A DNA stretch of 50,825 bases from positions 1 to 50,825 of the IMG/VR virus record IMGVR_UViG_3300036780_000409. One strand, 5' to 3'. This DNA is from a virus (Duplodnaviria > Caudoviricetes). Each line of letters starts with the position of its first letter. The first letter of the stretch is position 1. The position numbers were made by a program, and so were the translations under genes. Below the pieces are notes generated by a model. That model was not told the origin of the DNA, searched no databases, and saw nothing but the letters and a program-made list of their open reading frames with translations. This document shows, in pieces, positions 8,186 through 50,825 of the stretch.

Positions 8186-8316
8186 TCTGCCCACGCTGCA
8201 ATTCGCTCTTGCGCGAGCACGAACCTAGCCTCGATTGGCTGCGCTATTTCGAGTGCGGCGATTGCCTCTCGGTCTGGCACATCGAGGTCGTGGGGGGGGC
8301 AGCTATTTGGCTTTAG
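8182..8316 (+). CDS. Zinc-ribbon mini-protein (44 aa, MICPRC...ECGDC)
   Basis: Not in the ORF track. ATGA overlap; two CxxC pairs; contains a G8 tract at 8292-8299. Confidence 0.6.
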   Translation: MICPRCNSLLREHEPSLDWLRYFECGDCLSVWHIEVVGGAAIWL

Positions 8317-8354
8317 GTAGATCGAAACGCGAGAAGGAAGCGAAAGGAGAAACG

Positions 8355-8939: not shown

Positions 8940-11567
8940 TTGCGCCAATCGGCCCAAGTCGAAACGCGGCTCGCGGAGTACCGCGCGTTCCTGGAAGCGA
9001 AGCGTGTAGCGGCCCCGGAGCGCGGCATTGCGGTACCCGCGACGGCGTTGAGAGATGTCCTCAAACCGTTCCAGCGGGACATTGTGGCCTGGGCCTTGCG
9101 CCGGGGATGCGCGGCGATCTTTGCCTCCTTCGGATTGGGCAAGACGCTTATGCAACTGGAGATTGCCGCGCATATCGTGGACCGCTGCGAGGGGAACTTT
9201 CTGATCGTGACGCCGCTTGGAGTTCGTCAGGAGTTCACGCGAGATGCGGCGCTATTGGGCGTGCGGACCAAATTCATCCGGTCGATCGATGAGTGCGATT
9301 CGGAGCATTCGATCTACCTCACCAATTACGAGACGATCCGCGATGGCAAATTGGATCCTCGCAAATTCACTGGCGTGAGCCTGGACGAAGCGGCCATCCT
9401 TCGCGGTTTCGGAGGCTCGAAAACGTTCCGCGAATTCATGCGGCTATTTGAGAACGGGCAGGTGCGCTACAAGTTCGTGGCCACGGCTACGCCTTCGCCG
9501 AACGAATTTATTGAACTGTTGGCCTACTCCGCGTTCCTCGACGTAATGGACGTTGGGCAGGCGAAGACCCGATTCTTCAAGCGCGATTCGACCAATGCCG
9601 ACAATCTGACCTTGCATCCGCACAAAGAGCGCGAATTCTGGCTGTGGATGTCCACTTGGGCGATCTTCCTGCAGAAGCCATCAGAATTGGGCTATTCCGA
9701 CGAAGGCTACGAACTCCCGGAGATGGATATCCGCTGGCACGAAATCCCCACGGACCACGCGGATGCCGGCGAGGAAGTCTCGGGACAGAAGCGGCTCGTG
9801 CGCAATGCCGCGATTGGCGTGACCGACGCCTCGCGCGAGAAGAGGCGATCGCTGCCCGGGCGCCTAGCGAAGCTGATGGAGATTCGCGCGGAGGACTTGG
9901 AAGCACACCGGGTGATCTGGCACGACCTGGAAGATGAGCGCCGTGCGATTGAGAGCGCCATTCCCGCGTGCGCCACCGTTTACGGCAGTCAACCCTTAGA
10001 CGAGCGCGAGGAAATCGTTATCGACTTCTCGGAAGGCAAGATTCAGGAACTCGCCAGTAAGCCGGTGATGCTTGGGTCAGGTTGCAATTTTCAACGCCAC
10101 TGCCATTGGGCCGTATTCCTGGGCATCGGCTTCAAATTCAACGACTTCATACAGGCCATCCACAGGTGCCATCGCTTCTTGCAAACGAAGAAAGTCCGGG
10201 TCGACCTGATCTACACCGAAGCCGAGCGCGAAGTGCGCCGCACGCTCGAACGCAAATGGGATGAGCACAAAAAGCTCGTGGCCAAGATGAGCGAAATCAT
10301 CCGCGAATACGGACTGGCGGCGAACGCGCTGCACGCGGAGATGTCGCGCGGCATGGGAATCGATCGGCACGAAGAATCGGGCGATTCTTGGCGCATGGTG
10401 AACGCCGATTGCGTGGAAGAGGCCGCGGCGCTTGCCTCTGACTCGGCCGGCCTGATCCTCACGTCGATTCCGTTCTCAACGCAGTACGAGTACAGCCCGA
10501 ACTATTCCGACTTCGGACACTCGGACGACAACGGACATTTTTTCCGGCAGATGGACTTTCTGACTCCGGAACTCTATCGCGTGCTCAAGCCCGGGCGCGT
10601 GGCGGCGATTCACGTGAAGGACCGCATCGTGCCGGGCGGCATGACGGGCCTGGGATTCCAGACGGTCTACCCATTCCACGCCGATTGCATCGCCCACTAC
10701 ACCAAGCACGGTTTCGCGTATCTCGGAATGAAGACCATCGTCACGGACGTGGTGCGCGAGAACAATCAGACCTATCGCCTGGGCTGGACCGAACAGTGCA
10801 AGGACGGCTCGCGCATGGGCGTGGGGATGCCGGAATACCTACTGCTATTCCGCAAGCCGCCTACCGATGGCGCCAATGGCTACGCGGACGAGCCGGTCGT
10901 CAAGTCGAAGGCCGAGTACTCGAGATCGCGCTGGCAGATTGACGCGCACGGCTTCGCACGGTCGAGCGGGGATCGCCTGCTCGCGCCGGAAGATTTGACC
11001 GCGCTGCCCCACGAGCGCATTTCCAAACTTTTCCGCAGCTTTTCCACCGGCGAAGTCTACGACTACGAGCGCCACGTCGCGTTGAGCGAATCGCTGGAAA
11101 CCTGCCCAGAGTGCCATCACATTCACATCGGCTCGGAAGTTTGCGGACGCAACGGGAACGGCACGCCAAAGTGCGAATGCCGGGGAAGCGGCCGCTTGCC
11201 GGTCACGTTCATGCTGATGCAGCCGCAAAGTTGGCACCCGGACGTGTACACCGACATAACGCGCATGCGCACGCTCAACGGAGCGCAACAAGCCAAAGGG
11301 CGCGAGATGCATTTGTGCCCGATGCAGTTCGATCTGGCGGACCGGGTAATTGCGCAATTCTCGCGACCGGGTGAAACCGTTTTCGACCCCTTCGCGGGAA
11401 TCGGAACTTGTCCAATGCGAGCGGTAAAGCTCGGGCGCTTCGGCCTGGGAATCGAGCTGAGCGAACGCTATTTCGTGGACGCGGTTTATTACTGCCGCGA
11501 GGCCGAGCGTGGCCGCAACGTTCCGGCGTTGTTTGATTTAGAAGTGGAAGCCGAGGTCTCTCTGTGA
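8940..11567 (+). CDS. SNF2-like helicase fused to a beta-class amino-DNA methyltransferase
   Basis: Helicase motifs FGLGKT, LDEAA, TATPSPN, QAIHRCHR; MTase motif IV TSIPF precedes motif I DPFAGIGT. Confidence 0.9.
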   Translation: MRQSAQVETRLAEYRAFLEAKRVAAPERGIAVPATALRDVLKPFQRDIVAWALRRGCAAIFASFGLGKTLMQLEIAAHIVDRCEGNFLIVTPLGVRQEFTRDAALLGVRTKFIRSIDECDSEHSIYLTNYETIRDGKLDPRKFTGVSLDEAAILRGFGGSKTFREFMRLFENGQVRYKFVATATPSPNEFIELLAYSAFLDVMDVGQAKTRFFKRDSTNADNLTLHPHKEREFWLWMSTWAIFLQKPSELGYSDEGYELPEMDIRWHEIPTDHADAGEEVSGQKRLVRNAAIGVTDASREKRRSLPGRLAKLMEIRAEDLEAHRVIWHDLEDERRAIESAIPACATVYGSQPLDEREEIVIDFSEGKIQELASKPVMLGSGCNFQRHCHWAVFLGIGFKFNDFIQAIHRCHRFLQTKKVRVDLIYTEAEREVRRTLERKWDEHKKLVAKMSEIIREYGLAANALHAEMSRGMGIDRHEESGDSWRMVNADCVEEAAALASDSAGLILTSIPFSTQYEYSPNYSDFGHSDDNGHFFRQMDFLTPELYRVLKPGRVAAIHVKDRIVPGGMTGLGFQTVYPFHADCIAHYTKHGFAYLGMKTIVTDVVRENNQTYRLGWTEQCKDGSRMGVGMPEYLLLFRKPPTDGANGYADEPVVKSKAEYSRSRWQIDAHGFARSSGDRLLAPEDLTALPHERISKLFRSFSTGEVYDYERHVALSESLETCPECHHIHIGSEVCGRNGNGTPKCECRGSGRLPVTFMLMQPQSWHPDVYTDITRMRTLNGAQQAKGREMHLCPMQFDLADRVIAQFSRPGETVFDPFAGIGTCPMRAVKLGRFGLGIELSERYFVDAVYYCREAERGRNVPALFDLEVEAEVSL

Positions 11568-11752
11568 CCGACTCTCTCCCCGCCAAAGGCCAAATGTGGC
11601 TCAGAAGCTCCGGCCCCAACAAAGGCGCGCGCGTCGAAGTGGTCAAGGCGGACAAGCGCACCGTCGAGTACCGGGCGTATGCGGGAGGGAAAGTGCTGGC
11701 GATGTTCCCGGAGGATTTTTGCAATTCGTTCGAGATGGAGAGGAAGGCGTGA
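11564..11752 (+). CDS. Hypothetical small beta-barrel protein
   Basis: GTGA coupling; KGQMW...F...F pattern. Confidence 0.6.
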   Translation: MTDSLPAKGQMWLRSSGPNKGARVEVVKADKRTVEYRAYAGGKVLAMFPEDFCNSFEMERKA

Positions 11753-11793
11753 GCCAAATCGTTCTAGGTAAAGCGGGGAACGCAAAGGTATGA
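11749..11793 (+). pseudogene. 14-codon stub (MSQIVLGKAGNAKV), possible N-terminal remnant of a replaced ATPase gene
   Basis: Strong RBS, GTGA and ATGA coupling. Resembles the I-x-LG-x(5)-V lead-in of HerA/DUF87 proteins. Confidence 0.35.
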
Positions 11794-13544
11794 GCGATCC
11801 ACTAATGCCCGCAGCCGCTCTCGATCAGCATTTAATTGCGCTCGGGAAGACCGGCGCCGGCAAATCCTCTGCCGTGCGCGTTCTGGTCGAGGACCTGCTT
11901 GAGCGGAAAGAGCGTGTGGTTGTCATAACCCCAAAGAGCGATTGGTGGGGAATCAAGCTGGCCGCCGATGGAAAACACGCCGGATATCCGCTCGTAGTTT
12001 TTGGAGGAGATCACGCCGACATGCCGCTCAACCACACGAGTGGGAAGATGATGGCGGAGCTTCTGGCCTCCGGGAACCGCTCGGCCGTTTTGCAGATGCG
12101 CGAATTCATGCCAGCCGAGCGTGAGCAGTTTTGGGGCGATTTCGCGATGGGCCTTTTTCGATTACTGGAAGGAAAAATGTATCTGGTTATCGATGAGGTT
12201 CATAATTTCGCGCCGAAAGGCAAGGTCGAGGGAAAAGCCGCGACCATGCTCCATTGGTCCAACAAACTCGCGAGCGAGTCGCGTGGCCTCGGTATAACGC
12301 TAATCGCAGCGTCCCAGCGCCCCCAAAAAGTTCACAACGATTTTCTGACCTCCTGTGAAACGTTGATCGCAATGCGCGTCACGACGCAATGGGACCGGCA
12401 GGCCATCAAGGATTGGATCGATGGTTGCGGTGATAAGGAAACGGGCGCCGAGGTCTTGAGCACTTTGGCGCAGATGAAACGCGGCGACGCCTGGGTGTGG
12501 TCCCCGGAGATCGAGTTTGGTCCGAAGCAGATTCACTTCCCCATGTTCAGGACCTACGACTCTTTTAAGCCGCAAGAGCCAAAGGCGGTTAAATCGCTCA
12601 GTGGATGGGCAGAGGTGAATCTGGAGGATGTCCGCAAGAAGCTGGACTATGTTGTCAAGGAAGCCGAGGCGAACGATCCGAATAAACTTCGCACCCGCAT
12701 CGCGCAGCTTGAGGCAGAAGCGCGCAAGAAGCCCGCAGCCACGAAGGAAGTTGCTGTCGCTGACGCCAAGGCCATCGAACGCGCGGCGCGACAAGTCGAA
12801 CAGGGATTTCGAACGCAACTCGGTCAATTGGAGAAAGGGATGAAATCCGCGCAACGGACACTTTCACTGATTGCTGAGGCTGCGAGTTCGGCGAGCGCAA
12901 AGATGGGACCCATTAAGCCGTTCGTTCTGCCGCAAGTTTCGGGAGCGGAAATCCAACAGAAAGGGCTCGCGCTGGAACGGGCTGCGCAAAACCTATCGCA
13001 TGCAGCGCCCATCCGCTCCCGTCAATTACCGCCGATTGCCACGGAAGCCCACACCAATGGCGATTCGGAACTGACTGGCCCGATGCGCAAGATCCTCCGC
13101 GCGCTGGCTGAACTCTCCGCCATCGGCAAGGATGCGCCGCCCAAAGCGATGGCCGCGGCGTGGGCTGGTTACTCCGCGCAAGGTGGTGCCTTTGGCAATC
13201 CCATCGGCACGCTGAATAGTTTGGGCCTGGTGCGCTATCCGCAACCGGGATTCGTTTCGTTGACCGAGGAAGGCGCGTCCGCAATTGGCGCGCAAGATGT
13301 GCCGGATTCATCCGAAGTGAGACGAAGAATCGAGTCGATTTGCACCGGACCGGAGCGAAAGATTCTCACGGCGCTTCTGGAAAATGGCGAGGGGGAAATC
13401 TCCAAAGAGGAACTTGCGGAGAAAAGCGGGTACTCGCCGGTGGGCGGCGCTTTCGGGAATCCGATTGGAGCGTTGCGCACGAAAGGGCTGCTCGATTATC
13501 CGCGACCGGGGATGGTCCGAGCGGCGGAGTGGTTGTTCATATGA
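11790..13544 (+). CDS. HerA/FtsK-superfamily (DUF87-like) ATPase with coiled coil and two C-terminal winged-helix-like repeats
   Basis: HLIALGKTGAGKS, LVIDEVH, SRGLG and ASQRP motifs; duplicated TGPxRKIL...GYS..GGAFGNPIGxL...GL..YP.PG. Confidence 0.88.
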   Translation: MSDPLMPAAALDQHLIALGKTGAGKSSAVRVLVEDLLERKERVVVITPKSDWWGIKLAADGKHAGYPLVVFGGDHADMPLNHTSGKMMAELLASGNRSAVLQMREFMPAEREQFWGDFAMGLFRLLEGKMYLVIDEVHNFAPKGKVEGKAATMLHWSNKLASESRGLGITLIAASQRPQKVHNDFLTSCETLIAMRVTTQWDRQAIKDWIDGCGDKETGAEVLSTLAQMKRGDAWVWSPEIEFGPKQIHFPMFRTYDSFKPQEPKAVKSLSGWAEVNLEDVRKKLDYVVKEAEANDPNKLRTRIAQLEAEARKKPAATKEVAVADAKAIERAARQVEQGFRTQLGQLEKGMKSAQRTLSLIAEAASSASAKMGPIKPFVLPQVSGAEIQQKGLALERAAQNLSHAAPIRSRQLPPIATEAHTNGDSELTGPMRKILRALAELSAIGKDAPPKAMAAAWAGYSAQGGAFGNPIGTLNSLGLVRYPQPGFVSLTEEGASAIGAQDVPDSSEVRRRIESICTGPERKILTALLENGEGEISKEELAEKSGYSPVGGAFGNPIGALRTKGLLDYPRPGMVRAAEWLFI

Positions 13545-13951
13545 AGCATTCCAAAATCGATCCGAGCCTCGAACCGCGCAAGCAGCTCGCGACGTTTTAC
13601 ATGCTCGGCTACAGGTCCGAAGGATCGCGTTTCGAGCGCCGGCTGTACCAGCGCATTTGGTGGCGCATTCGTATGTCGGACCCATCGAACCGCGCGGAGA
13701 TAAACGCCAAGCGCCGCGAGAACGCCGCCCGTCACAGGATCAAGAATCGTAGACGCTGCGCAAAGTGGCGCCGCGAAAACCGCGCGTGGATCAGGAAAGC
13801 GACACGCAAGAGATGGAACAAAATCTGCCGGCGATGCGCTTTCTGTCGGGCGCGATCGACGTACCAGAATCGGCTGAAATTGGTCGAGCGGATAGTGCCG
13901 GACGGGAAGGGAAATTGGGAGGCGAGGAAGGTGTATTGGTGCGGTTGTTAG
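13541..13951 (+). CDS. Highly basic protein with C-terminal CxxC...CxC
   Basis: ATGA coupling at 13541; Arg/Lys/Trp-rich helix. Confidence 0.6.
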   Translation: MKHSKIDPSLEPRKQLATFYMLGYRSEGSRFERRLYQRIWWRIRMSDPSNRAEINAKRRENAARHRIKNRRRCAKWRRENRAWIRKATRKRWNKICRRCAFCRARSTYQNRLKLVERIVPDGKGNWEARKVYWCGC

Positions 13952-14048
13952 CACGTTAAAAAAATTTGGTCAAGTTGCGGCATACATTTTTGTACGGATT
14001 TTGGAGTGGGAAATTCGGGTATCTAGGTCTCGCCTGAGGGGGCGATGA

Positions 14049-14837
14049 ATGCCAAAGAGGATTCTTGATTTCGAGGCGATGTGGGCATCAGGAAAGCTCT
14101 CGAAATGTAAACCGCAGAACCGGTCGGAGTACTCGTGGCTTTACGGTTTGGCGGACGTCAATGGGTCATTTGAAATGACGAATATGACCGTTATTTTCGG
14201 GAAGGTGGCCCCGATCCGGCCCGACCTTACCGTCGCCCGCTTGGAGGAGATTTTCAACGATTTCCACAGGAACGACCTTTTGTACAAGTGGCAGGACGAG
14301 GCTTCCGGCAAGGTTTTTGGGCACTGGATAGGCTCAGAAAAGGGCGGAAGACTACCGCCGAAGAGCCAGAGGGAGAAGTACGCAACAAGCGCGCCACCTG
14401 TCCCTAAAGAGAAGACGAAAAGGGCTTTACCTCCCATTACAGAATCTAGATTAAATCTAGAGCCGGTCCAGAGTGAATCTCGACCTGAGTCTAGACAGGA
14501 AGGGTTTGGTTTAGGTTTGGATTCTGATAGGAAGGGAAAGGTAAATACAACTTCTAGGAACGCGCAAAATCAGCGCGTCCCAAGCCTCTCTCTCGTTTCT
14601 GATTTGGCCCGAAAAAAACAACTAACCCCACAGCAAATCGAATACGGCAAGGTCCACACTTTGGCGAATGAAGCCTTGCGCCTGATCGGAAAACAGGAAC
14701 GCGAGACCGGGAAAGTCGACGAGTTTGCGCTCAAAGAAGACTTGAAGCAGTGGTGCGCGAGCTGCGGCATTCCGTACAACGCCGACGAAATCAGGCGGGC
14801 GCTAGATGCCGCGTCCGGAAAGGCAAAGAGCGCATGA
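14049..14837 (+). CDS. Phage replication initiator (lambda O/replisome organiser-like)
   Basis: N-terminal LYGLADVNG wHTH-like region; central iteron-encoded linker followed by GFGLGLD; position before the nucleases. Confidence 0.7.
   Translation: MPKRILDFEAMWASGKLSKCKPQNRSEYSWLYGLADVNGSFEMTNMTVIFGKVAPIRPDLTVARLEEIFNDFHRNDLLYKWQDEASGKVFGHWIGSEKGGRLPPKSQREKYATSAPPVPKEKTKRALPPITESRLNLEPVQSESRPESRQEGFGLGLDSDRKGKVNTTSRNAQNQRVPSLSLVSDLARKKQLTPQQIEYGKVHTLANEALRLIGKQERETGKVDEFALKEDLKQWCASCGIPYNADEIRRALDAASGKAKSA
14442..14495. repeat. Iteron array, probable replication origin
   Basis: TCTAGA, TCTAGA, TCCAGA, TCTCGA, TCTAGA at 14445, 14456, 14467, 14478, 14490 (spacing 11, 11, 11, 12) inside the initiator gene. 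Confidence 0.7.
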
Positions 14838-15244: not shown

Positions 15245-15807
15245 GCAAAATCTGGACGCACAGCGATCTCTGTTTGCGTGCGCAACGATGGCTATCCGGC
15301 ACGCGGAGATGCGATCCGGTCTTCGCGAATATCGCGTCATGCGCGGAAATTCCCGACGCAATCGGATGGTCGAGTTCGTATCGAATGGGCGGAAGCACGG
15401 TGATCGAATGCAAAACATCCCTCTCGGATTTTTACGCGGACCAACGGAAATATTCAGTCTGGAGGCACAAAGAGCGCGGTTGGGACGAGTACCGAAACTC
15501 TCGTCGGGGGGTGACCCCGGAGCAGGCGACTGAATTGGGTTATGGGTTGATCGACCTTCCACGCATGGGCGATTACAGATTTTATTTTTGTGAGCCGGGA
15601 ATAATCACACCCGAAAATCTGACGGCGAACGCCCCCGATCACGGCCTCTGCTACGTCACGGCAAATCGCGTGAAGGTCATCGTGCCTGCGCCGGAACGTA
15701 CGAACGTGAACAAGAACGGGGAGATTCGCTATTTGCGATTCGCGATCCTCAACCGGAAGTTGCCGTATTTTCAACCTGAGCCGTTACGTGAGGCGGTGAG
15801 CCAGTGA
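15241..15807 (+). CDS. PD-(D/E)XK-family protein (MmcB-like)
   Basis: EIPDAIGW, VIECKTSLSDFYAD, GDYRFY and HGL motifs; GTG start at 15241. Confidence 0.75.
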   Translation: MSKIWTHSDLCLRAQRWLSGTRRCDPVFANIASCAEIPDAIGWSSSYRMGGSTVIECKTSLSDFYADQRKYSVWRHKERGWDEYRNSRRGVTPEQATELGYGLIDLPRMGDYRFYFCEPGIITPENLTANAPDHGLCYVTANRVKVIVPAPERTNVNKNGEIRYLRFAILNRKLPYFQPEPLREAVSQ

Positions 15808-16247
15808 AAGCCATCACGCTTTGGCAACCGTGGGCCTCGCTCATAGCCTTCGAGGAAAAGCGCGTCGAGACGCGGAGTTGGGCGACGAAGTATCGCGGGA
15901 AGATTGCGATTCACGCGGCGGCGAAAGAAACGAAAGTATGGGCCGAATCTTCGCGCCGTAGAGATTTTCATCTCGCCATGTGTGCAATCACCGAGAAGCA
16001 TTCGTGGGGCGAAGGCTACTGGCCGAACTCGCATCATCGCGTGGGATTCGGAGCAATTCTCTGCGTTGCAACGCTCGCGGGGATCGAGCACACCGAAGCC
16101 GTCCGCGATGATCTTTCCGAGCAAGAGCGCCTTTTCGGAAATTACGAAGACGGCCGCTACGCGTGGTTTTTCGAGAGCGTTGAGCGATTTGAAAAGCCGA
16201 TCCCGGCGAAAGGCAATCGTATGATTTGGAATTGGAAATCGCTATGA
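15804..16247 (+). CDS. ASCH domain protein
   Basis: MKAITLWQPWASLI...KRVETRSW..YRG.IAIHAA; PIPAKG...W. Confidence 0.92.
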   Translation: MKAITLWQPWASLIAFEEKRVETRSWATKYRGKIAIHAAAKETKVWAESSRRRDFHLAMCAITEKHSWGEGYWPNSHHRVGFGAILCVATLAGIEHTEAVRDDLSEQERLFGNYEDGRYAWFFESVERFEKPIPAKGNRMIWNWKSL

Positions 16248-43294: not shown

Positions 43295-44154
43295 CGCCGC
43301 TCGTCCTTCAGGATTCAACCGGACTGCTTTGGACGATATCGGTCAATGCCTGGGGCCAAATCGTCGCCACGGGCGGAGCGACTGGCATTGCCGTAGGTGT
43401 TTACATCAACGATTCCAGCGGCGCCTCGTACCTGCTTTCGTTCAACCCCACGGTGCGGAACATCCAGACTTCGCGCGTGTCTGTCGCCAGAAATTTCCCA
43501 ACATCCATTGCCATCGATGACTCATGGCTTATCGGGGTCGACACGTCCGGCCTGGTAGTGATTTCGCCATCCTCGCAGCTCGCACTGTGGCAGCAAACCG
43601 TGATTTCGCAGTACGCCAACAGTCCCACGCTGCTCGCGCTGATCGAGGATTTCAATTCGGCGGTCGATCCGAGCGGCGACATCGACAATTTTTATTCGTG
43701 GATTTGGAATATCGACACCGCGCAAGGATTCGGCTTGGATATCTGGGGCCGGATCGTGGGCGTGGGCCGCGCGATTCAGACGAGTCCGCCTACAATTTTG
43801 ACCGACTCTCAATTTCGCTCGCTGATTCTGCTGAAGGCGTTGAGCAATATTTCGATTGCGACCTCTCCGGCCATCAACTCGCTCTTGCGGAATTGGATGG
43901 CCGGGCGCGGCAAGGCTTACGTGAACGACCTCGGCGAGATGGAAATTCGCTACTCGTTCGAATTCGACCTGGAGCCGTTCGAAATTCTCATCATCACCGA
44001 GAGCGGTATTTTCCTGAGGCCTGCCGGAGTAGGCGGCTGGGCCGTAGCGACGACCTATCCGGTTTTCGGATTCAAAGAAATGGGAACGACTTGGGCAGCG
44101 CCATTCGATCAGGAGCCATTTATGCCAGCGGGAAATCCTTATGCTGTTAGCTAA
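43291..44154 (+). CDS. DUF2612-like baseplate protein with ~98-aa N-terminal extension
   Basis: TVISQYANSP.L, WNIDTA.GFGLDIWGRIVG, RPAGV. Confidence 0.85.
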   Translation: MTPLVLQDSTGLLWTISVNAWGQIVATGGATGIAVGVYINDSSGASYLLSFNPTVRNIQTSRVSVARNFPTSIAIDDSWLIGVDTSGLVVISPSSQLALWQQTVISQYANSPTLLALIEDFNSAVDPSGDIDNFYSWIWNIDTAQGFGLDIWGRIVGVGRAIQTSPPTILTDSQFRSLILLKALSNISIATSPAINSLLRNWMAGRGKAYVNDLGEMEIRYSFEFDLEPFEILIITESGIFLRPAGVGGWAVATTYPVFGFKEMGTTWAAPFDQEPFMPAGNPYAVS

Positions 44155-45043
44155 CGCGCCAGCCCAACTCGTTCTTCCGTGGGGCAACGGAGATTCTTCG
44201 AAGACGAACCCGATTCCGGTTCCCTCGCAAATCAGCATCACGCCGGGAGCGGCGAGCTGGACCGATGGATTCCCGCCGCTCTGTGCAACCGCAGTTACAT
44301 CTGGCGGCGTCCCGCCGACGAAGGCCGACATGAACGGTGGTCTGTTCCAGATGTCCGCCGTAGACGTTTGGATTTGCGCGGGCGGCGGATTCCCCTATTC
44401 GAGCGCATTCAGCACGGCCATTGGCGGATACCCGAAGGGCGCGCGCGTCCTGATGGCGAGCGGCCTGAGCTACTGGCGATCGATTGTCGACAACAATACA
44501 ACCGATCCCGATACGGGCGGAGCGGGATGGGTTGGCGAGCCGGGAACGGAGAGCGTAAACACAACTGCGGTCACGGTGAACGGCGGAAGCCTTGCGCTGC
44601 AAAACCTGATGTCCTATGCGATTCCCGCCGGAAGTTTGAATGTTGCCAGAAAAGTAAAGCGGATCACTATGTCTGGAAACGGGAACATCGCAGGGGCGGT
44701 CAACTTCAATTTAGGTTTTGCTCTTCCAGGCGGTGGCGGAACGGGACTCCCATGGAACGTCGCAAATTCTTCAGGCTCCATAGATTTATCGTGGCGAATA
44801 GTGGTGGAAATTACGACGCTAACGACAGGGGCAAGTGGATCAGTGCTCGTTTCGTCTGCGTTGCAAGTCGGGCAGGGCGCTCCGAACCTATCGGTAGCCA
44901 ACGGTGAGGCTTATGTTTTCATAGGGACCGGCATCGATTTAACCAGTTCCGTAACTCTGCAGGTCCAAGCCGAATTCGCCTCCGGTGCCGGCAGCGGCGA
45001 CACCGTAATTCAAGAGGGCATGATCGTGGAGGCTCTAAATTGA
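44141..45043 (+). CDS. Tail fibre protein
   Basis: GAASWTDGFPP, GG.PP...DMNG, IGGYPKGA, W.S..DNN..DP N-terminal anchor; variable beta-rich C-terminus. Confidence 0.85.
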   Translation: MLLANAPAQLVLPWGNGDSSKTNPIPVPSQISITPGAASWTDGFPPLCATAVTSGGVPPTKADMNGGLFQMSAVDVWICAGGGFPYSSAFSTAIGGYPKGARVLMASGLSYWRSIVDNNTTDPDTGGAGWVGEPGTESVNTTAVTVNGGSLALQNLMSYAIPAGSLNVARKVKRITMSGNGNIAGAVNFNLGFALPGGGGTGLPWNVANSSGSIDLSWRIVVEITTLTTGASGSVLVSSALQVGQGAPNLSVANGEAYVFIGTGIDLTSSVTLQVQAEFASGAGSGDTVIQEGMIVEALN

Positions 45044-47553
45044 AACAGCTAACCATCTGGGATCGCCGTCTTCTCGCCATTCTCTATCTGGTATTTCTCG
45101 CAGCCGTCGTCCAATGGGCGCTCGGGCCGCACGACGCGATGGCCGCGCAAACGCACACGTTCCCCGCGACGGATACGAACAATACCTTCACGGGCACCAA
45201 TACGTTCGGTCCAATTGTTATCAACGGTCCTTGCACCGGGGCGGTCGGCTGCGGAGGGCAAATCGTCACCACGATTCCCATTGCCGGTTCTTACGCAAGC
45301 AAAGGCACGACCGTCTCGGTAACGAACGGCGCGAATGCGAATGACTGCACGGCGGGCGGAGGGACCACGCCGGTATTCTGCCAGTACAGCGGCTCGGCGT
45401 GGGCGGCGGTGGCGAGTTCGGTTGCAGGGAATCCAGGCGGGTCGGATACCAACATTCAGTGTAATAAATCGGGAGTTTTCAGTGGCAATTGCTTGCTTTC
45501 GGTAAACAGCAGTACGTCTCCGACGCAGTTAAATATTCTCGGAGACGTAGCTTTCGCCGGGCCCCGGCCTTACATCGATGTGACCGCACCGCCGTATAAT
45601 TGCGATCCAAACAGCGGCGCCGATTGCACTGCGGGAATCCAATTAGCGATCAACGATGCGTGCGCCTATTCAGGTAACGCGGCCCCGGCGATTTATTTTC
45701 CATTTGGCTTTGACGCCTACAAGGTAAGCCAGCCGCAAGCACCGGATAACAGCCCTATTTTTGACTTGCCTGCAAACTGTGCCGGTTTGCACCCTATCGG
45801 CGAAGGCTTCAGCAAGCAAGCCCCGCAGTTTTCGCGCTCGCCACAGGCCGTTATTCAAGTTGGTCATTGTGGCACTCCCGGTACGGGGCCAGTGTTCAAG
45901 GTGGATACCAACGCCAACGCGATTACTTTCGAGAATCTAGCGATTGAGGGTTGCAATCAAGGCGTAGAAGTTACGGGCGCGTCTGGCACAACTTTCAAGA
46001 ATACCTGCGTGTCCAACTTCGGCTCCGGCGGCACCGGCCTCGCCGCGAATACGGCTCTCTATCTCCTCGATTCGGTTCAGTTCCTGGATTTCTACGGCGG
46101 CTGCATCACGGCTGGCGGGCCTACGGCCGTGCTGATGCAGGACGATAGTTCCGGGACCCCCATCGCCAATATAAACTTTTACGGCACGCGCATGGCCGGG
46201 GACGGCATGGAGTACCTGACCACTGCGTTAGGGCATCCGACCGGCGGCGGCGGGGACATCACGCTCGATCACATCGTAGACGAAGATTGCAACGCGCCGC
46301 TGTTTTCGGTGGTGGATTCCAGCGGCAGCCAGAATATGGGAGGTTTTGGCAACCTGATACTGACAAATCCGGTGATGGCGGATTGCGGCGCAACCTATCC
46401 CATCTTGCAGTTGAACATGCCGGGGGACTATTTGTTTGGCGTGGATATTTCCTTGCCGCAAGGCAGTAATAGCGCCGCTCAGGCAATTCAGGCTTTGTCT
46501 GTTGGCTCTATAGGATTCATCCATATTTCGGGATGTGGTGGTTTTTGTACCACGGCGGCGGTGGATGGCAGCGGCAACCCACTCGCGGGTGTCGTAGAGG
46601 ACAATCAATTTGGACACGACTACCAGGTGAGCGCTTACGCGGGCCGCCTGCGCACCGACACGATTGGATTTGTGGGTGATCCGCTGCGCATTTTTCCATC
46701 GGGCGTGAATCCATCCTTCGCCACGCTGGGCCTCGATTTGACCGAGGGCTTGCTTTTCAACCAGGCGCAAGGCTTGGGGTATTCCGGTGGAGTGGCACAA
46801 TTCGCGCCGAACAGCGTAGGGATTGAATTTCCCACGGTGCTGCCTCCTGCGAGCGTAGCGGCTGCACCAACCACCGGCGGAACGCTGCCTAACGGCACCT
46901 ACTACGTCGCCGTCTACGGTGAAATCGGCGGTAGCGGTTGCAGCGGGGGAACTACAGAATCGGCCCCGTCGTCTCCGGTTGTGCCAATCACTCTTTCCGG
47001 CTCGAACGACGCAATCAGTGTGACCTGGAGTTTGCCCACGCCAAACATGTCCTCTGATTTTTGCGCAGTGGCTTCGTCCGGGCCGATACCGGGTGCCGAT
47101 GGAAACATGCCCACGGTACACGTATCCAGCAGTTCCACCAATGCCACGATTATCACGAACAACGCGCTGAATCCTAATCCGATCCCCGTCGCACCGATGA
47201 CCGAGTATCACCGCTACACCTACAACGCGTTCGGCGTTAACACCACTTCTCCCGTCCCCGGAACGCTCACGGACAATGGTGGTTTCGTCGCCCAGAAAAA
47301 TACTTACTCTTCCGCGCACACGCTGCTGGTTTCCGAGCACACCGTTTTCGTGACCGGCACAACCACGATCACGGTTTTGCATGCGCTGCCGACGTCGGGC
47401 CTCGCGAGCGAATGGCTCGTAATCAACTCGGGGACGAACACCGTCACGCTCGCTTGCGACAGCGGAAATATCAACGGCGGAGCGACGGTGACGCTAGCCG
47501 CGAACGCGAGCGGCATTGTAACCGCAGATGGCACCAATTGCTGGGAGCACTAA
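45040..47553 (+). CDS. Tailspike/depolymerase-like protein (pectin-lyase-type beta helix) with signal-peptide-like leader
   Basis: IDVTAPPYN...DCTAGIQLAIND..AIYFP beta-helix cap; GGTL.NGTYY..ESAPS module; C-terminal fibre module; hydrophobic leader ending AMA-AQ. Confidence 0.8.
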   Translation: MKQLTIWDRRLLAILYLVFLAAVVQWALGPHDAMAAQTHTFPATDTNNTFTGTNTFGPIVINGPCTGAVGCGGQIVTTIPIAGSYASKGTTVSVTNGANANDCTAGGGTTPVFCQYSGSAWAAVASSVAGNPGGSDTNIQCNKSGVFSGNCLLSVNSSTSPTQLNILGDVAFAGPRPYIDVTAPPYNCDPNSGADCTAGIQLAINDACAYSGNAAPAIYFPFGFDAYKVSQPQAPDNSPIFDLPANCAGLHPIGEGFSKQAPQFSRSPQAVIQVGHCGTPGTGPVFKVDTNANAITFENLAIEGCNQGVEVTGASGTTFKNTCVSNFGSGGTGLAANTALYLLDSVQFLDFYGGCITAGGPTAVLMQDDSSGTPIANINFYGTRMAGDGMEYLTTALGHPTGGGGDITLDHIVDEDCNAPLFSVVDSSGSQNMGGFGNLILTNPVMADCGATYPILQLNMPGDYLFGVDISLPQGSNSAAQAIQALSVGSIGFIHISGCGGFCTTAAVDGSGNPLAGVVEDNQFGHDYQVSAYAGRLRTDTIGFVGDPLRIFPSGVNPSFATLGLDLTEGLLFNQAQGLGYSGGVAQFAPNSVGIEFPTVLPPASVAAAPTTGGTLPNGTYYVAVYGEIGGSGCSGGTTESAPSSPVVPITLSGSNDAISVTWSLPTPNMSSDFCAVASSGPIPGADGNMPTVHVSSSSTNATIITNNALNPNPIPVAPMTEYHRYTYNAFGVNTTSPVPGTLTDNGGFVAQKNTYSSAHTLLVSEHTVFVTGTTTITVLHALPTSGLASEWLVINSGTNTVTLACDSGNINGGATVTLAANASGIVTADGTNCWEH

Positions 47554-47555
47554 AG

Positions 47556-48035
47556 ATGAAACGCCTTTTTCTGGTTCTGACTCTCGCGGTACTTTCAGCC
47601 CCGCCAATCTCGGCCGACAATCTCGCGCGCAAGTTCGTCCACTCCGTTTCTCATCACAAAGAGACTTTCGTCCGCAGCGGCATTCTCACCGCCTACATTT
47701 CCGTCGATGTTTGGTCGACCAATCGCTGCCAAAGAATCAGCGCGTACTGCATCGAGACGAATCCCGTTCTCGGGCAGCATCCCTCGCCGCAAGCGACCTG
47801 GGGATACGCGCTCGGAATCGATGGCGTTCTCATCGCGCTCGATGCCGTTGCCGCGCATTACGCGCCATCGCGCTTGGGCAGGCAAATTCCGTGGGCCTGG
47901 ACCATTCCCATCGCGGCGTACGAGACGGTGAACGTGCGCTCGAATATCGAAGTGACCGGACGGCTGGAGAACCTGAATCAGATTTTGAATCGGCCGACGC
48001 ACAGGCCGGGGAATCTGGAATGGCGAAACCGCTAG
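47556..48035 (+). CDS. Exported/membrane protein with D..ST...E.NP motif (DUF5658-like)
   Basis: MKRLFLVLTLAVLSA leader; VDVWST...IETNPVLG. Confidence 0.7.
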   Translation: MKRLFLVLTLAVLSAPPISADNLARKFVHSVSHHKETFVRSGILTAYISVDVWSTNRCQRISAYCIETNPVLGQHPSPQATWGYALGIDGVLIALDAVAAHYAPSRLGRQIPWAWTIPIAAYETVNVRSNIEVTGRLENLNQILNRPTHRPGNLEWRNR

Positions 48036-48202
48036 GCCTATGCGAGCGATGCGGTGAGCAAACGATCCATCCGCACCCAGCGCGATTCGCGGACAAGACC
48101 GAGAAGCTTTGCTGCAACTGTTACGACGCGGCGGTACTGGAGATCCTGTTGCACTTTCACAACGTCGCCGCTTGGATCGAGGGACGGAGGGCTGAACCAT
48201 GA
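48020..48202 (+). CDS. Small zinc-finger protein (CERC...CCNC)
   Basis: ATG at 48020; coupled to the next gene. Confidence 0.5.
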   Translation: MAKPLGLCERCGEQTIHPHPARFADKTEKLCCNCYDAAVLEILLHFHNVAAWIEGRRAEP

Positions 48203-48525
48203 AAGAATCTTGGCTATCGCATAACACCGACAAGATGCTGCTTTTCTTGCTCGTGATCCTTGGCGCCGTTCTCGTTCTGGTAATCAATTACCACGGCGGC
48301 GACGAGAAATTGCTCGAGTGGGCCGAGACATCCTGTAGCACGGTCCTCGGCGCACTCATCCTGATCCTGACCGGACGCATCGCGCGCTCAGATGGGCAGA
48401 CAGCGAACGGATTGCCACCCGGGATGGGCTCGCTCGCTCCGCCATACCCAACGTCATTGCCGGTCGCACCGGCGCCCGCAGCAACGCCCGCAACGCCCAA
48501 GGAGGGCCTTCCCAATGGCAAGTGA
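48199..48525 (+). CDS. Two-TM holin-like membrane protein with Pro-rich tail
   Basis: GGAGG RBS; two hydrophobic helices. Confidence 0.65.
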   Translation: MKESWLSHNTDKMLLFLLVILGAVLVLVINYHGGDEKLLEWAETSCSTVLGALILILTGRIARSDGQTANGLPPGMGSLAPPYPTSLPVAPAPAATPATPKEGLPNGK

Positions 48526-48853
48526 CGCGCCGCTCACGCCACAAGAGCAAACCAAGGACGCCGGCCAGGTCGCGCGCGAAGGCTACATTCACCGCGTACT
48601 GGTGGGCTTCGATCAATTCATGGGTTCGGTGATCGGCCTCCAAAACGATCAAACGATCTCTTCGGCCACGGAAATCGCCGCGCACAAGAAGGTCTGGTAC
48701 TCCGCGGCAGCCAAAGCCTTGAACGATGGCCTTGACGTCATCCAGAAATCGCACGGCCAACAGGCCCAAGTGGGCGACATCGTGCGCGCGGAGGAAGTCA
48801 TTAAGACCGATACTGCCGCGCTCCAAAAGGAAACGGGAACCGTGAAGCCATGA
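48515..48853 (+). CDS. Conserved phage protein (DQ...DxTISS...H motif)
   Basis: AAGGAGG RBS; LVGFDQF..VIG..NDQTISS. Confidence 0.7.
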   Translation: MASDAPLTPQEQTKDAGQVAREGYIHRVLVGFDQFMGSVIGLQNDQTISSATEIAAHKKVWYSAAAKALNDGLDVIQKSHGQQAQVGDIVRAEEVIKTDTAALQKETGTVKP

Positions 48854-49077
48854 GCGCGGCGACCGTACTCCGCGAAAAGATGGGGACCACCATGAAACCA
48901 GGCGACCTGTGGGATTGGATCAAGCTCGTGGCGCTGGTGGGCGGAATGCTCCTCGGCTACTACCAACTCGTCGGTAAGGTGAGCGAGTTGCAGCGGCAGA
49001 CCACGCGGATCGAACGCTACCTGTCCTCGAAGGACACGAACTATTGGCAGGCCGCGCGGTCGCTGGACGAGCCATAG
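48850..49077 (+). CDS. Small single-TM protein with coiled segment
   Basis: WIKLVALVGGMLLGYY followed by a heptad-like segment. Confidence 0.6.
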   Translation: MSAATVLREKMGTTMKPGDLWDWIKLVALVGGMLLGYYQLVGKVSELQRQTTRIERYLSSKDTNYWQAARSLDEP

Positions 49078-49079
49078 GT

Positions 49080-49376
49080 ATGGGCGCGAAATTCAAAGAC
49101 TTCGGCATCCAGGAAGACAGCGAGCAGTGGATTGCGTTTCACTGCCCAGGCTGCGAACACGCCCACTCGATTCCGGTCACCGGGCCGCGCCTGTGGAAGT
49201 GGAACGCGTCGTTTGACAAGCCGACCATCACGCCGTCGATTCTCGTGAATCGCGGGAGAGAGAATCCGACCGTGCCGGTTTGTCACTCTCACATAAGCGA
49301 TGGCCGCATCCAGTTTTTGAACGATTGCACGCACAAACTCTCCGGGCAGACCGTCGAATTGCCCGATTGGGATTAG
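49080..49376 (+). CDS. DUF6527-like protein
   Basis: CPGC..AH, W.WN....PT.TPSI, CHS.I.DGRIQFL.DC.H.L.GQTV.LP. Confidence 0.8.
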   Translation: MGAKFKDFGIQEDSEQWIAFHCPGCEHAHSIPVTGPRLWKWNASFDKPTITPSILVNRGRENPTVPVCHSHISDGRIQFLNDCTHKLSGQTVELPDWD

Positions 49377-49407
49377 CGATGGAAGACGCGCACTAAGGAG
49401 CAAGGCG

Positions 49408-49707
49408 ATGAAATACATAGCAAATCCGGTCGAAGTGGATGCGTTTCGGATCGTTGGAGTTTTCGGCTATCAGGACGAAATCTCTAAAGACGGGCTTGGC
49501 CTCAAATTGGAAGGTGGCGAAGTGCAGCAGGCTACGCCAGAAATGTGCGCGCGGATGACACCTCGAATCGGGGACTACTTCGTGATTCAATCTGACGGCT
49601 ATGCATACCTGAATCCAAAGGAAGTTTTCGAGCGCAAGTACTCCCCGGCCCCGCTCAACGCTCTACAGCTAGGGGCAGCCGCACGCGCAGCCGGAATCGT
49701 TCGCTGA
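49408..49707 (+). CDS. Conserved phage protein (PV.V.A...GDY.V...DGY....PK.VFE..Y)
   Basis: AAGGAG RBS; motif pattern. Confidence 0.75.
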   Translation: MKYIANPVEVDAFRIVGVFGYQDEISKDGLGLKLEGGEVQQATPEMCARMTPRIGDYFVIQSDGYAYLNPKEVFERKYSPAPLNALQLGAAARAAGIVR

Positions 49708-49843
49708 CCTCGTACGGGGCGTCCGGAGGGAAGGACCTCGCACCGACAGGAGAGCGGGGTCCTTGGACGCTTTTCGGGTGGCAGGCCAGACCTTCCGTGA
49801 TAGGATGCGCCGCAAAAGCTTTCCCTTCAACTTAACCCGCTTC

Positions 49844-49885
49844 GGGCGCTGTGCGGGTCGCCTACAGCGCCCAAGGTTTCAATTT
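49844..49885. terminator. Possible terminator between convergent genes
   Basis: GGGCGCTGT/ACAGCGCCC 9-bp stem; the T-tail is imperfect. Confidence 0.35.
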
Positions 49886-49906
49886 TGAGATGGGGTCCTT
49901 GGAAGC

Positions 49907-50593
49907 TTAATTGACTGGCGGGGCATCCAGACGCAGCGCGACTATCGCTTTCGTCCCCGAAACGATTCCGCCAGACACGGCTAACTCGTACGTTCTATTC
50001 ATCGGTACGTCGAACGCAACGAACGCGGTTTTCGAAACTCCCGGATTCAGTTCCTCAAGCACGCTGAAGAATCCTCCGTTTAGCATCCCGGCAGAACTCT
50101 CGTCGTACGTCCTGCCTTCGGCGTCCATCAGCTTGAACGGCGGTATCGTGCTCGCGCTCGTATCATCGTTCCGCGCCGTGATCTGAATCACCACGAACTG
50201 CGCATTTGCTCTTTCAAACGTGAACGCGTCTGACCCGATAAACGGCGTCCGAAACGCTCTCTGGCAAAGATAGGTCCAGTAACCTACCGAAAATTGCTGC
50301 CCTAATTCGTAAGTTTGGAATGTGGGCGCAGGATCGACTTGCGGATCATCCCGCGTCTCCGGCTGAACGGTAACCTCATGCGCCGCGCGAGTTTCCGGAG
50401 AGACTATAGCGACGGCACCTTCGGGTTGATTTGGGCTGAGAACCCAAACGCCCACCGGGACAATGACAGCCGCCGAAAGCAGGACCAATCCAAGTATTCC
50501 AGGCCACCGCTTTGAGATAGAAGTTCCACAAAAACCGCAGAACCTACCGGCGCTGGCTGTTTCTTCGCCGCAATTAGGGCAGCATTCTGGCAC
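49907..50593 (-). CDS. Zinc-ribbon + TM + DUF4352-like extracytoplasmic Ig domain (moron/superinfection-exclusion candidate)
   Basis: CPNCG...FCGFCG; TM segment; FVVI.IT.RN, FKL.D.EGRTYD, LNPG......VAFDVP. Confidence 0.8.
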   Translation of the reverse strand: MPECCPNCGEETASAGRFCGFCGTSISKRWPGILGLVLLSAAVIVPVGVWVLSPNQPEGAVAIVSPETRAAHEVTVQPETRDDPQVDPAPTFQTYELGQQFSVGYWTYLCQRAFRTPFIGSDAFTFERANAQFVVIQITARNDDTSASTIPPFKLMDAEGRTYDESSAGMLNGGFFSVLEELNPGVSKTAFVAFDVPMNRTYELAVSGGIVSGTKAIVALRLDAPPVN

Positions 50594-50636
50594 TTTGACT
50601 TCTTGGAAAATAAACTAAATCAGGCCCAATTAGTGC

Positions 50637-50666
50637 TTGACACGAATGTGCACACAAGCGTATAAC
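50637..50666 (+). promoter_or_regulatory. Sigma70-like promoter with internal palindromic operator candidate
   Basis: TTGACA-N18-TATAAC; TGTGCACA palindrome at 50647-50654; ATG 7 nt downstream. Confidence 0.55.
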
Positions 50667-50673
50667 ATTGTGC

Positions 50674-50825
50674 ATGGCAACAACGGTGCAACAAAAGACC
50701 AACACCGAAAACGAGACGATGGGCGAGAACAGAGACGTCCGTATCGTCGTGCGAGCAACCGAATCTGAAAAGCGCAAGTTCGATAAGTTGGCCAAAGCCA
50801 ACCACACCGACCTGAGCGAGATCAT
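50674..50825 (+). CDS. Ribbon-helix-helix regulator (Arc/CopG-like), truncated at the window end
   Basis: Not in the ORF track. MATTVQQKTNTENETMGENRDVRIVVRATESEKRKFDKLAKANHTDLSEI. Confidence 0.7.
   Translation, partial: MATTVQQKTNTENETMGENRDVRIVVRATESEKRKFDKLAKANHTDLSEI

Follow-up and report, generated by a model that had tools for sequence, protein, structure and literature searches.

Tailspike depolymerases such as those of Sf6, HK620, CBA120 (TSP2 and TSP3), and phiAB6, together with ORF18 of Geobacillus virus E2, consist of a beta-helix followed by a beta-sandwich and are encoded at the end of the tail module. These proteins lack a signal peptide and are assembled in the cytoplasm, and in phages, the lack of a signal peptide commonly serves as a hallmark of structural proteins. 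We analyzed the IMG/VR virus record IMGVR_UViG_3300036780_000409, a 50.8-kb provirus record that is rated complete (the window, meaning the whole stretch of 50,825 nucleotides). Its open reading frame (ORF) at positions 45040 to 47553 of the plus strand, here called the spike ORF, lies directly after the tail fiber gene, a position that we refer to as the slot. The encoded protein of 837 amino acids shares the architecture and genomic placement of the tailspike depolymerases, and its structural model matches them in Foldseek searches (E values, 5.8e-8 to 1e-4). Unlike those tailspikes, this spike-like protein has an export leader, 22 cysteines with family-wide signals of pairing, no detectable virion anchor, and cellular, exported kin.

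The protein also resembles, in fold, the Vibrio cholerae RbmB lyase, the Azotobacter AlgE4/AlgE6 epimerases, and the GH87 alpha-1,3-glucanases, which are exported and act on the producer's own exopolysaccharide. In contrast to these enzymes, it is encoded by a phage and coupled to a fiber gene, and its identity to the solved enzymes is only 11 to 14%. Tail fiber-like phage proteins whose action is not confined to the virion but extends to the surface of the bacterium are said to include PblA and PblB of Streptococcus mitis phage SM1, which reportedly lack signal peptides and leave their monoderm host by way of holin and lysin. Spanins are phage proteins that use the general secretory (Sec) pathway, and the T4 antiholin RI is described as another. 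Lys44 of Oenococcus phage fOg44 and the signal-arrest-release (SAR) endolysins are late phage proteins that pass through Sec by an N-terminal signal and reside outside the cytoplasm before lysis (PMC6116005); they are peptidoglycan hydrolases of the lysis cassette, whereas the spike-like protein is a large, polysaccharide-type beta-helix in the receptor-binding slot. Among carbohydrate-active enzymes of soil prophages, 3,261 of 64,678 (5%) carry signal peptides, in a set from which tail fiber and structural genes were removed by design (PMC13507307), and Porphyromonas gingivalis phages encode leader-bearing proteins of unknown function to which a role in modifying the host surface is ascribed, with Gln at position +1 in five proteins of unknown function (PMC10367356). 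The excerpts of these two papers report neither leaders on proteins of the fiber or spike slot nor a clade-wide pattern, and in that of a further paper, SignalP is named in the methods only (PMC9658697). None of our literature searches uncovered a description of tail fibers or tailspikes with signal peptides; cases may be listed in the supplementary material of PMC10367356 and PMC13507307.

We propose that the spike ORF, as the last large gene of the tail operon, encodes a Sec-exported, disulfide-stabilized beta-helix enzyme, from a family of exported Acidobacteriota enzymes, that acts as a free protein on host exopolysaccharide, and we put the probability of this reading at about 40%. Whether it serves as a depolymerase or as a spike, the product is a phage protein built for the extracytoplasmic space.

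The coordinates, reading frame, and N terminus in the initial annotation of this ORF (the product begins MKQLTIWDRRLLAILYLVFLAAVVQWALGPHDAMAAQ) agree with the ORF listing. Only two possible start codons occur in its first 70 codons, TTG at codon 1 and ATG at codon 34, and the 44 in-frame codons upstream of the TTG contain none. The TTG overlaps the TGA stop codon of the fiber gene (TTGA), and a Shine-Dalgarno-like GGAGG (45028 to 45032, plus strand) is located 7 nucleotides before it; nothing similar precedes ATG34. The related motifs GGAG, GAGG, and AGGA are found upstream of 18 of the 31 late ORFs of this phage. As these are the only two candidate starts and the Shine-Dalgarno-like site is at the TTG, the long, leader-bearing form is taken as the real product. 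The initial annotation had named a true start further downstream, for example at the Met in AMAAQ, as one of the results that would speak against its reading; that start (ATG34) was rejected for want of a ribosome-binding site, and both the GGAGG motif and the TTGA overlap favor the TTG. No terminator-like site was found between the fiber gene and the spike ORF, and promoter-like sites before the spike ORF numbered 0 against 3.3 expected, in a scan for the sigma-70-type consensus only, which is weak evidence for this kind of host. The guanine-plus-cytosine content of the region (0.57 to 0.59) is like that of the neighbors and the rest of the window. As far as these scans reach, the spike ORF thus shows neither the promoter and terminator of its own nor the deviant composition of a moron, and the overlapping start, the lack of promoter-like and terminator-like sites, and the unchanged composition together indicate a late gene.

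The leader comprises residues 1 to 35 or 1 to 36 (45040 to 45147, plus strand) and reads MKQLTIWDRR, then LLAILYLVFLAAVVQWAL, then GPHDAMA. It has what Sec and signal peptidase I call for, as judged by our own sequence rule: a basic n-region (K2, R9, and R10), an h-region of 18 uncharged residues (L11 to L28; mean Kyte-Doolittle hydropathy, 2.46), and a helix-breaking c-region, GPHDAMA(A), with Ala at positions −3 and −1. Cleavage is predicted at A33-M34-A35↓A36 or at A35-A36↓Q37 (arrows). AlphaFold2 (AF2) predicts a helix over residues 2 to 27. The rule is permissive; the case for the leader is built on its canonical appearance and its conservation. In the family member P0031, the mature chain starts with QTHAFPALDTTNAWTG right after ...PLYA (matching stretch, QTHAFPALDTTNAW), and the spike-like protein has QTHTFPATDTNNTFTG from residue 37, such that residues 37 to 52 match the mature N terminus of P0031. 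Because that N terminus aligns with residue 37, cleavage may occur at AMAA↓Q rather than at AMA↓A. Twin arginines (R9-R10-L-L) directly precede the hydrophobic core. Typical twin-arginine translocation (Tat) signals have a weakly hydrophobic h-region; given the very hydrophobic core (2.46) and the cysteine evidence for folding after export described below, we read the leader as Sec rather than Tat. This high hydrophobicity also suggests cotranslational export that depends on the signal recognition particle. A lipoprotein signal was rejected, as no Cys is near the cleavage site.

Conservation of the leader in homologues, which the initial annotation had proposed as a check, was found in kind: at the family loci L002 to L025, from genomes and viruses alike, each of the 24 open frames keeps a leader, as do, by the strict rule, 87 of the 128 family proteins of at least 400 amino acids. 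A canonical Sec-type leader on the spike-like protein is thus strongly supported at the level of sequence. The predicted cleavage site is frequently followed by Gln. Among family proteins with a leader-type hydrophobic core, 57 of 91 show the strict pattern small-x-[AGS]↓Q just behind the core, compared with a background Gln frequency of 3.6%, and Gln is at +1 in all seven related slot proteins (L034 to L037, L050, L063, and L066). This resembles the Q-rule, which is described as specific to Bacteroidetes (PMC5837995), though the named genomes of the family are Acidobacteriota.

The protein had been described as having about 22 cysteines, many of them closely paired. The count is exactly 22 (residues 65, 71, 103, 114, 141, 151, 188, 196, 208, 247, 277, 305, 323, 355, 417, 449, 499, 503, 634, 675, 806, and 834), and all five local pairs quoted at that time exist, but their closeness is what chance would give (6 gaps of at most 12 residues against 6.0 expected; P = 0.60). 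We therefore argue for pairing from covariation and parity in homologues and not from spacing. Residues 1 to 35 have no Cys, so that all 22 lie behind the leader, and every region of the protein has an even number (6, 12, 0, 2, and 2). The Cys content of 2.63% is 2.6 times that of the other 52 translated ORFs of the window (1.03%; P = 9e-5 by a binomial test). Of 87 leader-bearing family members, 70 have an even number of cysteines in the mature chain and 17 have an odd number (P = 4e-9), in a set that includes some fragments and misplaced cleavage sites, which can only blur the signal. In an alignment of 41 sequences, C208 and C247 are present in all 41, and C634 and C675 are present in 37 of 37 and 34 of 41, respectively. 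Other cysteines come and go together: C188/C196 are both present in 4 sequences, and the other 37 have neither; for C277/C305, 5 sequences have both, 1 has a single one, and 35 have none (phi, 0.90); and C499/C503 occur together in 18, with C499 alone in 8 (phi, 0.67). A DsbA-like family (PF13462) is encoded in five of five genomes of the lineage, and VKOR was found in none of the five.

A further pairing signal comes from the C-terminal module (47206 to 47553, plus strand; core, residues 755 to 837), which contains the C806/C834 pair and ends VTADGTNCWEH directly before the stop codon. Its last ~85 residues follow the pattern VTGTTTITV.HALP...W.V.NSG.NTVT..CDSGNING.A..T......G..VTADGTNCWEH and end many otherwise different proteins of 84 to 1,168 amino acids. 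A hidden Markov model built from 11 copies detected the module in 57 of 161 stored proteins, at the very C terminus in 50 of them, and we regard it as a mobile domain of many exported proteins. In the 50 terminal copies, the final Cys (of TNC) is constant and has exactly one partner at either of two sites, with one exception that has both. The partner is either the Cys of x-C-D-S-G, with the tail T-A/T/S/V-D-G-T-N-C, or a Cys five residues before the final one (C-D-G-T-N-C); in the latter form, Ala occupies the first site. Together with the covariation, the even parity, and the DsbA-like family, this switch of partner makes extracytoplasmic, disulfide-bonded folding a well-supported natural state for the family and for the spike-like protein, as far as sequence comparison can tell. 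Export followed by disulfide formation outside the cytoplasm, the first half of what the initial annotation had put forward, is thus well supported by the conserved leader, the TTG start, the even and covarying cysteines, and the exported cellular relatives.

The module also occurs in versions without Cys, which end signal-less, fiber-like phage ORFs (L072, 560 to 784; L074, 4218 to 4415; L076, 4215 to 4412; and L087, 10045 to 12693 on the minus strand), which suggests that one module fold appears in both a cytoplasmic phage form and an exported disulfide form. It was absent from the Acidobacteriota genomes sampled first (0 of 5, 0 of 301 across the phylum, and 0 of 5) and was found in 6 of 301 genomes in a denser sample of the order holding L013; the first, narrow patterns did not find it in viral contigs. 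A type IX sorting domain (Por_Secre_tail or CHU_C) was rejected, as a Pfam scan of the whole protein gave no match to either. The architecture is type IX-like by resemblance only, with a leader, a variable body, a conserved C-terminal module of ~85 residues, and frequent Gln at +1.

Between the leader and the C-terminal module, the spike-like protein has three further regions. The mature N-terminal region (residues 37 to 176; 45148 to 45567, plus strand) starts with QTHTFPATDTNNTFTGTNTF and continues with Cys-pair modules (65/71, 103/114, and 141/151). It is followed by a right-handed beta-helix with 12 cysteines (residues ~177 to 600; 45568 to 46839, plus strand), whose homologues carry PF12708 (Pect-lyase_RHGA_epim), and by a beta-sandwich domain with the C634/C675 pair (residues ~601 to 722; 46840 to 47205, plus strand), which by eye is fibronectin-III-like. 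The AF2 model from the 41-sequence alignment has a mean predicted local distance difference test (pLDDT) score of 73.6 and replaces an earlier model from 12 sequences with a mean of 55.4. It shows a ladder of strands over residues 178 to 600 (pLDDT, about 85 to 94), strands in the beta-sandwich (about 70 to 94), and a C-terminal module scored at 60 to 87; residues 27 to 174 are below 50, and the mature N-terminal region, at less than 45, is not confidently modeled. This ladder and the Foldseek matches bear out the beta-helix seen earlier from the sequence alone. Matches include the tailspikes of Geobacillus virus E2 (ORF18; E value, 5.8e-8), CBA120 (TSP2), HK620, and Sf6, as well as the secreted enzymes AlgE4/AlgE6, RbmB, and the GH87 glucanases, with a probability of 1.00 to many beta-helix enzymes, and many phage models of the pectate lyase superfamily and of exopolysaccharide depolymerases match in BFVD. 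The modeled fold thus does not separate phage tailspikes from secreted bacterial enzymes. By sequence, no match was found in PDB at an E value of ≤1 or, by tblastn, among GenBank phages. Alignments list D448, D527, D566, E415, and R550 as conserved.

Within the N-terminal region, residues 130 to 176 resemble the family protein P0035. A relative matched only by way of query residues 124 to 167, P0098 (1,619 amino acids), has ~16 tandem copies of a ~50-residue unit (PGGATTNIQYNNAGSFAGSATLTFNSGTATL). The spike-like protein and P0035 each have a single such unit, in which there are two additional cysteines (IQCNKSGVFSGNC).

The relatives of the protein are largely cellular. A word-indexed search returned 11 relatives besides the spike-like protein itself, with identities of 28 to 41% and a precomputed PF12708 assignment in all 11, and an exhaustive search returned 225 representatives at an E value of ≤0.001. 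When the family alignment was used to scan collections of genomes and viruses, it found 19 genome loci, 18 of them titled as Acidobacteriota metagenome-assembled genomes (several as Candidatus Acidiferrales or Acidoferrum), and 6 IMG/VR loci. The 24 open frames mentioned above, a count that leaves out a short Planctomycetota match (L026), all have a hydrophobic stretch, next the motif ...A↓QGSR(K/R/H)D..., and then a domain that by eye we take to be carboxypeptidase-regulatory-like. None of the other 52 proteins of the window matches these family loci, which indicates that the relatives are not located in homologous tail modules. Against a PF12708 cutoff of 27 bits, the members at L027 and L031 score 36.5 and 29.8 bits, respectively, and that at L085 is just under it, at 25.7.

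The contexts of these genes point toward polysaccharides. The closest relative in the beta-helix (L002; 1,546 amino acids; 54% identity) adjoins genes for a response regulator (PilZ and VpsR-like domains) and for an NHL-repeat protein. The member at L085, in one of the six genomes with the C-terminal module (742 amino acids; 16 Cys), has the leader MMKLMFALTALIFSLTLPLPLQA↓Q and is surrounded by three GT4 glycosyltransferases, a GDP-mannose 4,6-dehydratase, NAD-dependent epimerases, and a TonB-type outer membrane barrel, which we interpret as a cellular polysaccharide locus of a diderm. In another of the six, a member of 441 amino acids is located among housekeeping genes (L086). Homologues of 713 to 768 amino acids, of which those of 757 to 768 have leaders, are also found outside tail modules at L027 and L028, next to a PD-(D/E)XK exonuclease (phrog_1218), phrog_17202, and a DUF5681 protein in a gene order that differs between the two contigs; judging from these neighbors, the context is phage-like, of the early or packaging type, and not a tail module. 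Taken together, these comparisons strongly support the assignment of the spike-like protein to a family of exported beta-helix proteins with disulfide bonds, the cellular members of which occur in polysaccharide contexts.

We then compared the slot across related phages. The fiber ORF (44141 to 45043, plus strand; 300 amino acids) matches tail fiber PHROGs (phrog_12796; E value, 1.1e-32 over residues 4 to 156) and is syntenic with other fiber genes, in line with the initial statement that the spike ORF follows a tail fiber gene. Its N-terminal ~130 residues are common to, and retrieve, 37 viral loci with tail modules syntenic with the window from sheath to fiber. The closest four (L034 to L037) have identities of 58 to 76% in the fiber and 63 to 73% in the sheath; downstream of the fiber gene, nothing is homologous to the window. 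Sequence is present after the fiber gene in 31 of the 37, giving a set of 32 slot ORFs with that of the window. The strict leader rule flags 11 of these 32, compared with 32 of 358 ORFs (9%) upstream in the tail modules under the same start scan, which allowed any start within the first 100 codons (P = 1.9e-4 by Fisher's test); L045 is identical to L046 and some other loci are near duplicates, which limits the independence of the counts. Judged by eye, canonical leaders are present in eight of the 11, namely, those of the window, all four closest relatives, and the more distant L050, L063, and L066. The other three, an 85-residue membrane protein at L040 and the ORFs at L045 and L046, were set aside. 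The predicted leaders and cuts are MKRIWISLFLLGSVIFPAMVYA↓Q (L034), TVYA↓Q (L035), CAFS↓Q (L036), MKRIFAALIFLGCMAFPIHA↓Q (L037), ...LIAAPAQA↓Q (L050), MKRLIGVLIAVLLLGLPTAHA↓Q (L063), and MTKAFLRAFRTICVGAMLLLPALAHA↓Q (L066), and the start of the L066 ORF overlaps the fiber stop codon. The mature Cys counts of the eight canonical proteins are 22, 6, 8, 10, 6, 2, 2, and 16, all even, with four of the sequences cut by contig ends. The recurrence of leader-bearing fiber- or spike-like proteins in the slot of related phages is, by sequence comparison, strongly supported and more general than the initial annotation had envisaged.

Several of these slot proteins match virion families. That of L037 (1,054 amino acids) matches phrog_23837, "virion structural protein" (E value, 1.8e-64), and phrog_4636, "tail spike" (E value, 1.8e-25), and against GenBank phages its matches are confined to fiber-repeat regions and never include the N terminus. 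The L050 protein matches tail collar fiber families, those of L063, L034, and L036 match tail fiber families, and that of L066 has no match. In L034 to L037, the first 110 to 140 residues are common at 58 to 80% identity, after which the proteins diverge. L050 has two successive leader-bearing ORFs after the fiber gene (10696 to 11466, 256 amino acids, and 11516 to 14152, 878 amino acids), and L066 has, as in the window, a smaller leader-bearing ORF (15472 to 16035; 187 amino acids) after the large slot protein. Behind its leader, the 878-residue protein has the stretch W...KQD.LGYT..NKAGD.M.G.L, which is also present in L063 and L066 and which by eye we take to be a common tail fiber shaft motif. 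Elsewhere, the slot is occupied differently: four more distant relatives have ordinary ORFs of 140 to 190 amino acids that are fiber-assembly-like by eye, L061 and L064 have large signal-less fiber proteins (787 amino acids, sharing PHROG families with that of L036, and 1,020 amino acids, respectively), and L040, L057, L065, and L070 have no large second gene after the fiber. Leader ORFs are also seen further upstream. Between baseplate J and the DUF2612 gene, L045/L046 have three canonical-looking ones (6042 to 8545) and L068 has two (5499 to 8766), and an ORF of ~1,650 amino acids in the tail module of L040 (574 to 5535) starts with MIRKFVILWLFSCVAALA↓Q. The small leader-bearing ORFs inside the baseplate modules of L045/L046 and L068 look like cargo and not like structure, and in this group of phages, genes for exported proteins seem to have a hotspot in the tail module.

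On these grounds, the spike ORF would share the transcript of the tail genes, and its translation would begin at the TTG (45040) by coupling to the fiber gene, after which the leader of 35 or 36 residues would route the chain through Sec, with cleavage by signal peptidase I at AMA↓A or AMAA↓Q and the formation of up to 11 disulfides in the periplasm; both steps are supported by the sequence and by the relatives. The folded enzyme might then build up outside the cytoplasm in late infection and be freed at lysis, where, as a free enzyme rather than a stable part of the virion, it could strip polysaccharide matrix from the surroundings of the lysing cell and of neighboring cells, which would let progeny equipped with only the short fiber of 300 residues get away and find other cells. 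In this scheme, we infer host exopolysaccharide as the substrate, as well as the enzymatic activity, its timing, and whether the protein joins the virion. We place the free enzyme first because the protein matches a cellular-type exported enzyme domain for domain and has no detectable anchor, because the short fiber is self-sufficient in several relatives, and because homologues and other leader-bearing ORFs are cargo-like. The regions unique to the phage copy gave no match to a known virion anchor, the mature N terminus is shared with P0031, and the 300-residue fiber has a C-terminal domain of its own. Several observations weigh against this reading, however. The gene position, the coupling to the fiber, and the tailspike architecture are those expected of a virion receptor-binding protein. 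Leader-bearing slot proteins of relatives match virion families, and for a fiber a free role is harder to picture; likewise, the mosaic of conserved N and variable C termini in L034 to L037 looks like the usual pattern of virion-anchored receptor-binding proteins. All leader calls come from our own sequence rule, whose strict form also flags the 9% of upstream tail ORFs given above. The spike-like protein has no match in Pfam or PHROGs at an E value of ≤0.01, and activity and substrate would follow from the relatives. Finally, when 401 sampled Acidobacteriota genomes were searched for relatives of the tail genes, the fiber had none, and baseplate J had matches in 2 of the 401, both marginal (E value, ~4e-4).

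Many of the same observations would suit a protein that is exported and oxidatively folded and yet is a true virion spike, which would wait in the periplasm and dock onto the C-terminal domain of the fiber, or onto the baseplate, of spike-less particles after holin lesions or lysis, so that virion maturation finishes outside the cytoplasm. We consider this somewhat unlikely, even though it accommodates the tail operon position, the tailspike fold, the excess of leaders in the slot, the virion PHROG matches and even Cys counts of the slot proteins, and the occurrence of signal-less proteins with the same domain families in the slot elsewhere (L061 versus L036). In its favor, too, the C-terminal part of the fiber and the N-terminal part of the spike are both unique to this phage among the fetched loci, as if exchanged together (tblastn of spike residues 37 to 176 and fiber residues 131 to 300 against all fetched loci gave no match at an E value of ≤0.1), and the leader ORFs downstream of the large slot genes (159 amino acids in the window and 187 in L066) are about the size of fiber-assembly chaperones. 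Language-model neighbors of residues 37 to 176 are all viral, some with fiber N-terminal families, but with scores of 0.84 to 0.86 they are weak leads only. Conversely, the literature searches gave no precedent for such a spike, no anchor homology was detected in the protein, its family is otherwise cellular and exported without a virion context, the short fiber alone suffices in several relatives, and dilution at lysis would presumably make docking inefficient. A wider form of the idea, to which we give slightly less credence still, is that this myovirus-type clade sends its distal fibers and spikes through Sec for disulfide folding in the periplasm and completes its virions at holin lesions or lysis, with the small leader ORFs (159 amino acids; 187 amino acids in L066) as periplasmic helpers.

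Two other explanations depart further from the free, late enzyme. The protein could be expressed from the prophage, exported, and used to remodel the polysaccharide of the lysogen's own surface, thereby blocking superinfection by phages that depend on this glycan or changing the biofilm matrix. The export signal and the family membership would fit such lysogenic conversion, since cellular members are in polysaccharide loci or beside PilZ/VpsR-like regulators, and so would the homologues in phage-like contexts outside tail modules, the leader-bearing cargo ORFs inside the tail modules of relatives, the leader proteins of P. gingivalis phages (PMC10367356), and the 5% of prophage carbohydrate-active enzymes with signal peptides (PMC13507307). 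The late-gene layout described above, with a start that overlaps the fiber stop, no promoter-like site of the sigma-70 type, no terminator, and unchanged base composition, speaks against it, and we judge it improbable. The protein might, on the other hand, not be exported at all, being either a cytoplasmic tailspike started at ATG34 or a protein whose uncleaved hydrophobic helix serves as a membrane tether or trimer core; in a variant, it would be exported already folded, through Tat, by way of R9-R10. ATG34 is in frame, the twin arginines are directly before the h-region, and tailed-phage spikes are normally cytoplasmic (compare PMC6199706, where the lack of a signal peptide is taken as support for a phage origin of fiber-like targets of diversity-generating retroelements). 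Yet the strong Shine-Dalgarno-like site is at the TTG and none is at ATG34, leaders are family-wide, and the mature N terminus matches that of P0031; the even Cys parity and the covarying pairs fit neither a reducing compartment nor folding before export, and for a typical Tat signal the h-region would be too hydrophobic. We hold this last group of explanations to be very improbable.

If the product is a free exported enzyme, phages would be able to take over a matrix-degrading enzyme that the host itself secretes and to express it as part of the tail operon, which bears on the movement of soil phages through exopolysaccharide and on the mining of stable, disulfide-bonded depolymerases. If it instead joins the virion, the last step of assembly would occur outside the cytoplasm, for which our literature searches found no description in tailed phages. 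Under either reading, pipelines that discard leader-bearing proteins as nonstructural, or that seek depolymerases only among signal-less ones, would misclassify such genes.

The remainder of the window has the gene order of a contractile-tailed (myovirus-type) phage, with genes for the large terminase (starting at 19440), portal (21571), protease (28796), major head protein (31126), sheath (34813), tube (36455), tape measure (37523), baseplate hub (40093), wedge proteins (41715), baseplate J (42074), and a DUF2612 protein (43291) ahead of the fiber gene, and the spike ORF is the last large gene of this operon, after the baseplate and fiber genes. The next ORF (47556 to 48035, plus strand; 159 amino acids) begins 2 nucleotides after the spike stop codon and has a leader-like N terminus, MKRLFLVLTLAVLSAPPISA↓D, and two cysteines. 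It has no match in Pfam or PHROGs, and a homologue search returned only itself; it is an orphan that may possibly be a partner of the spike-like protein. No endolysin was recognized downstream of the tail genes (47556 to 50825), and no tRNA was found in the window. The downstream segment otherwise contains small ORFs for membrane or unknown proteins (48199 to 48525 and 48850 to 49077), a phrog_3342 ORF, a DUF6527 ORF (49044 to 49376), and a zinc-ribbon/phrog_806 ORF on the minus strand (49907 to 50593). Far upstream, an ORF of 875 amino acids (8940 to 11567, plus strand) matches the phage helicase family phrog_16 (E value, 1.8e-120), and its second half matches DNA methyltransferase families (phrog_67 and others).

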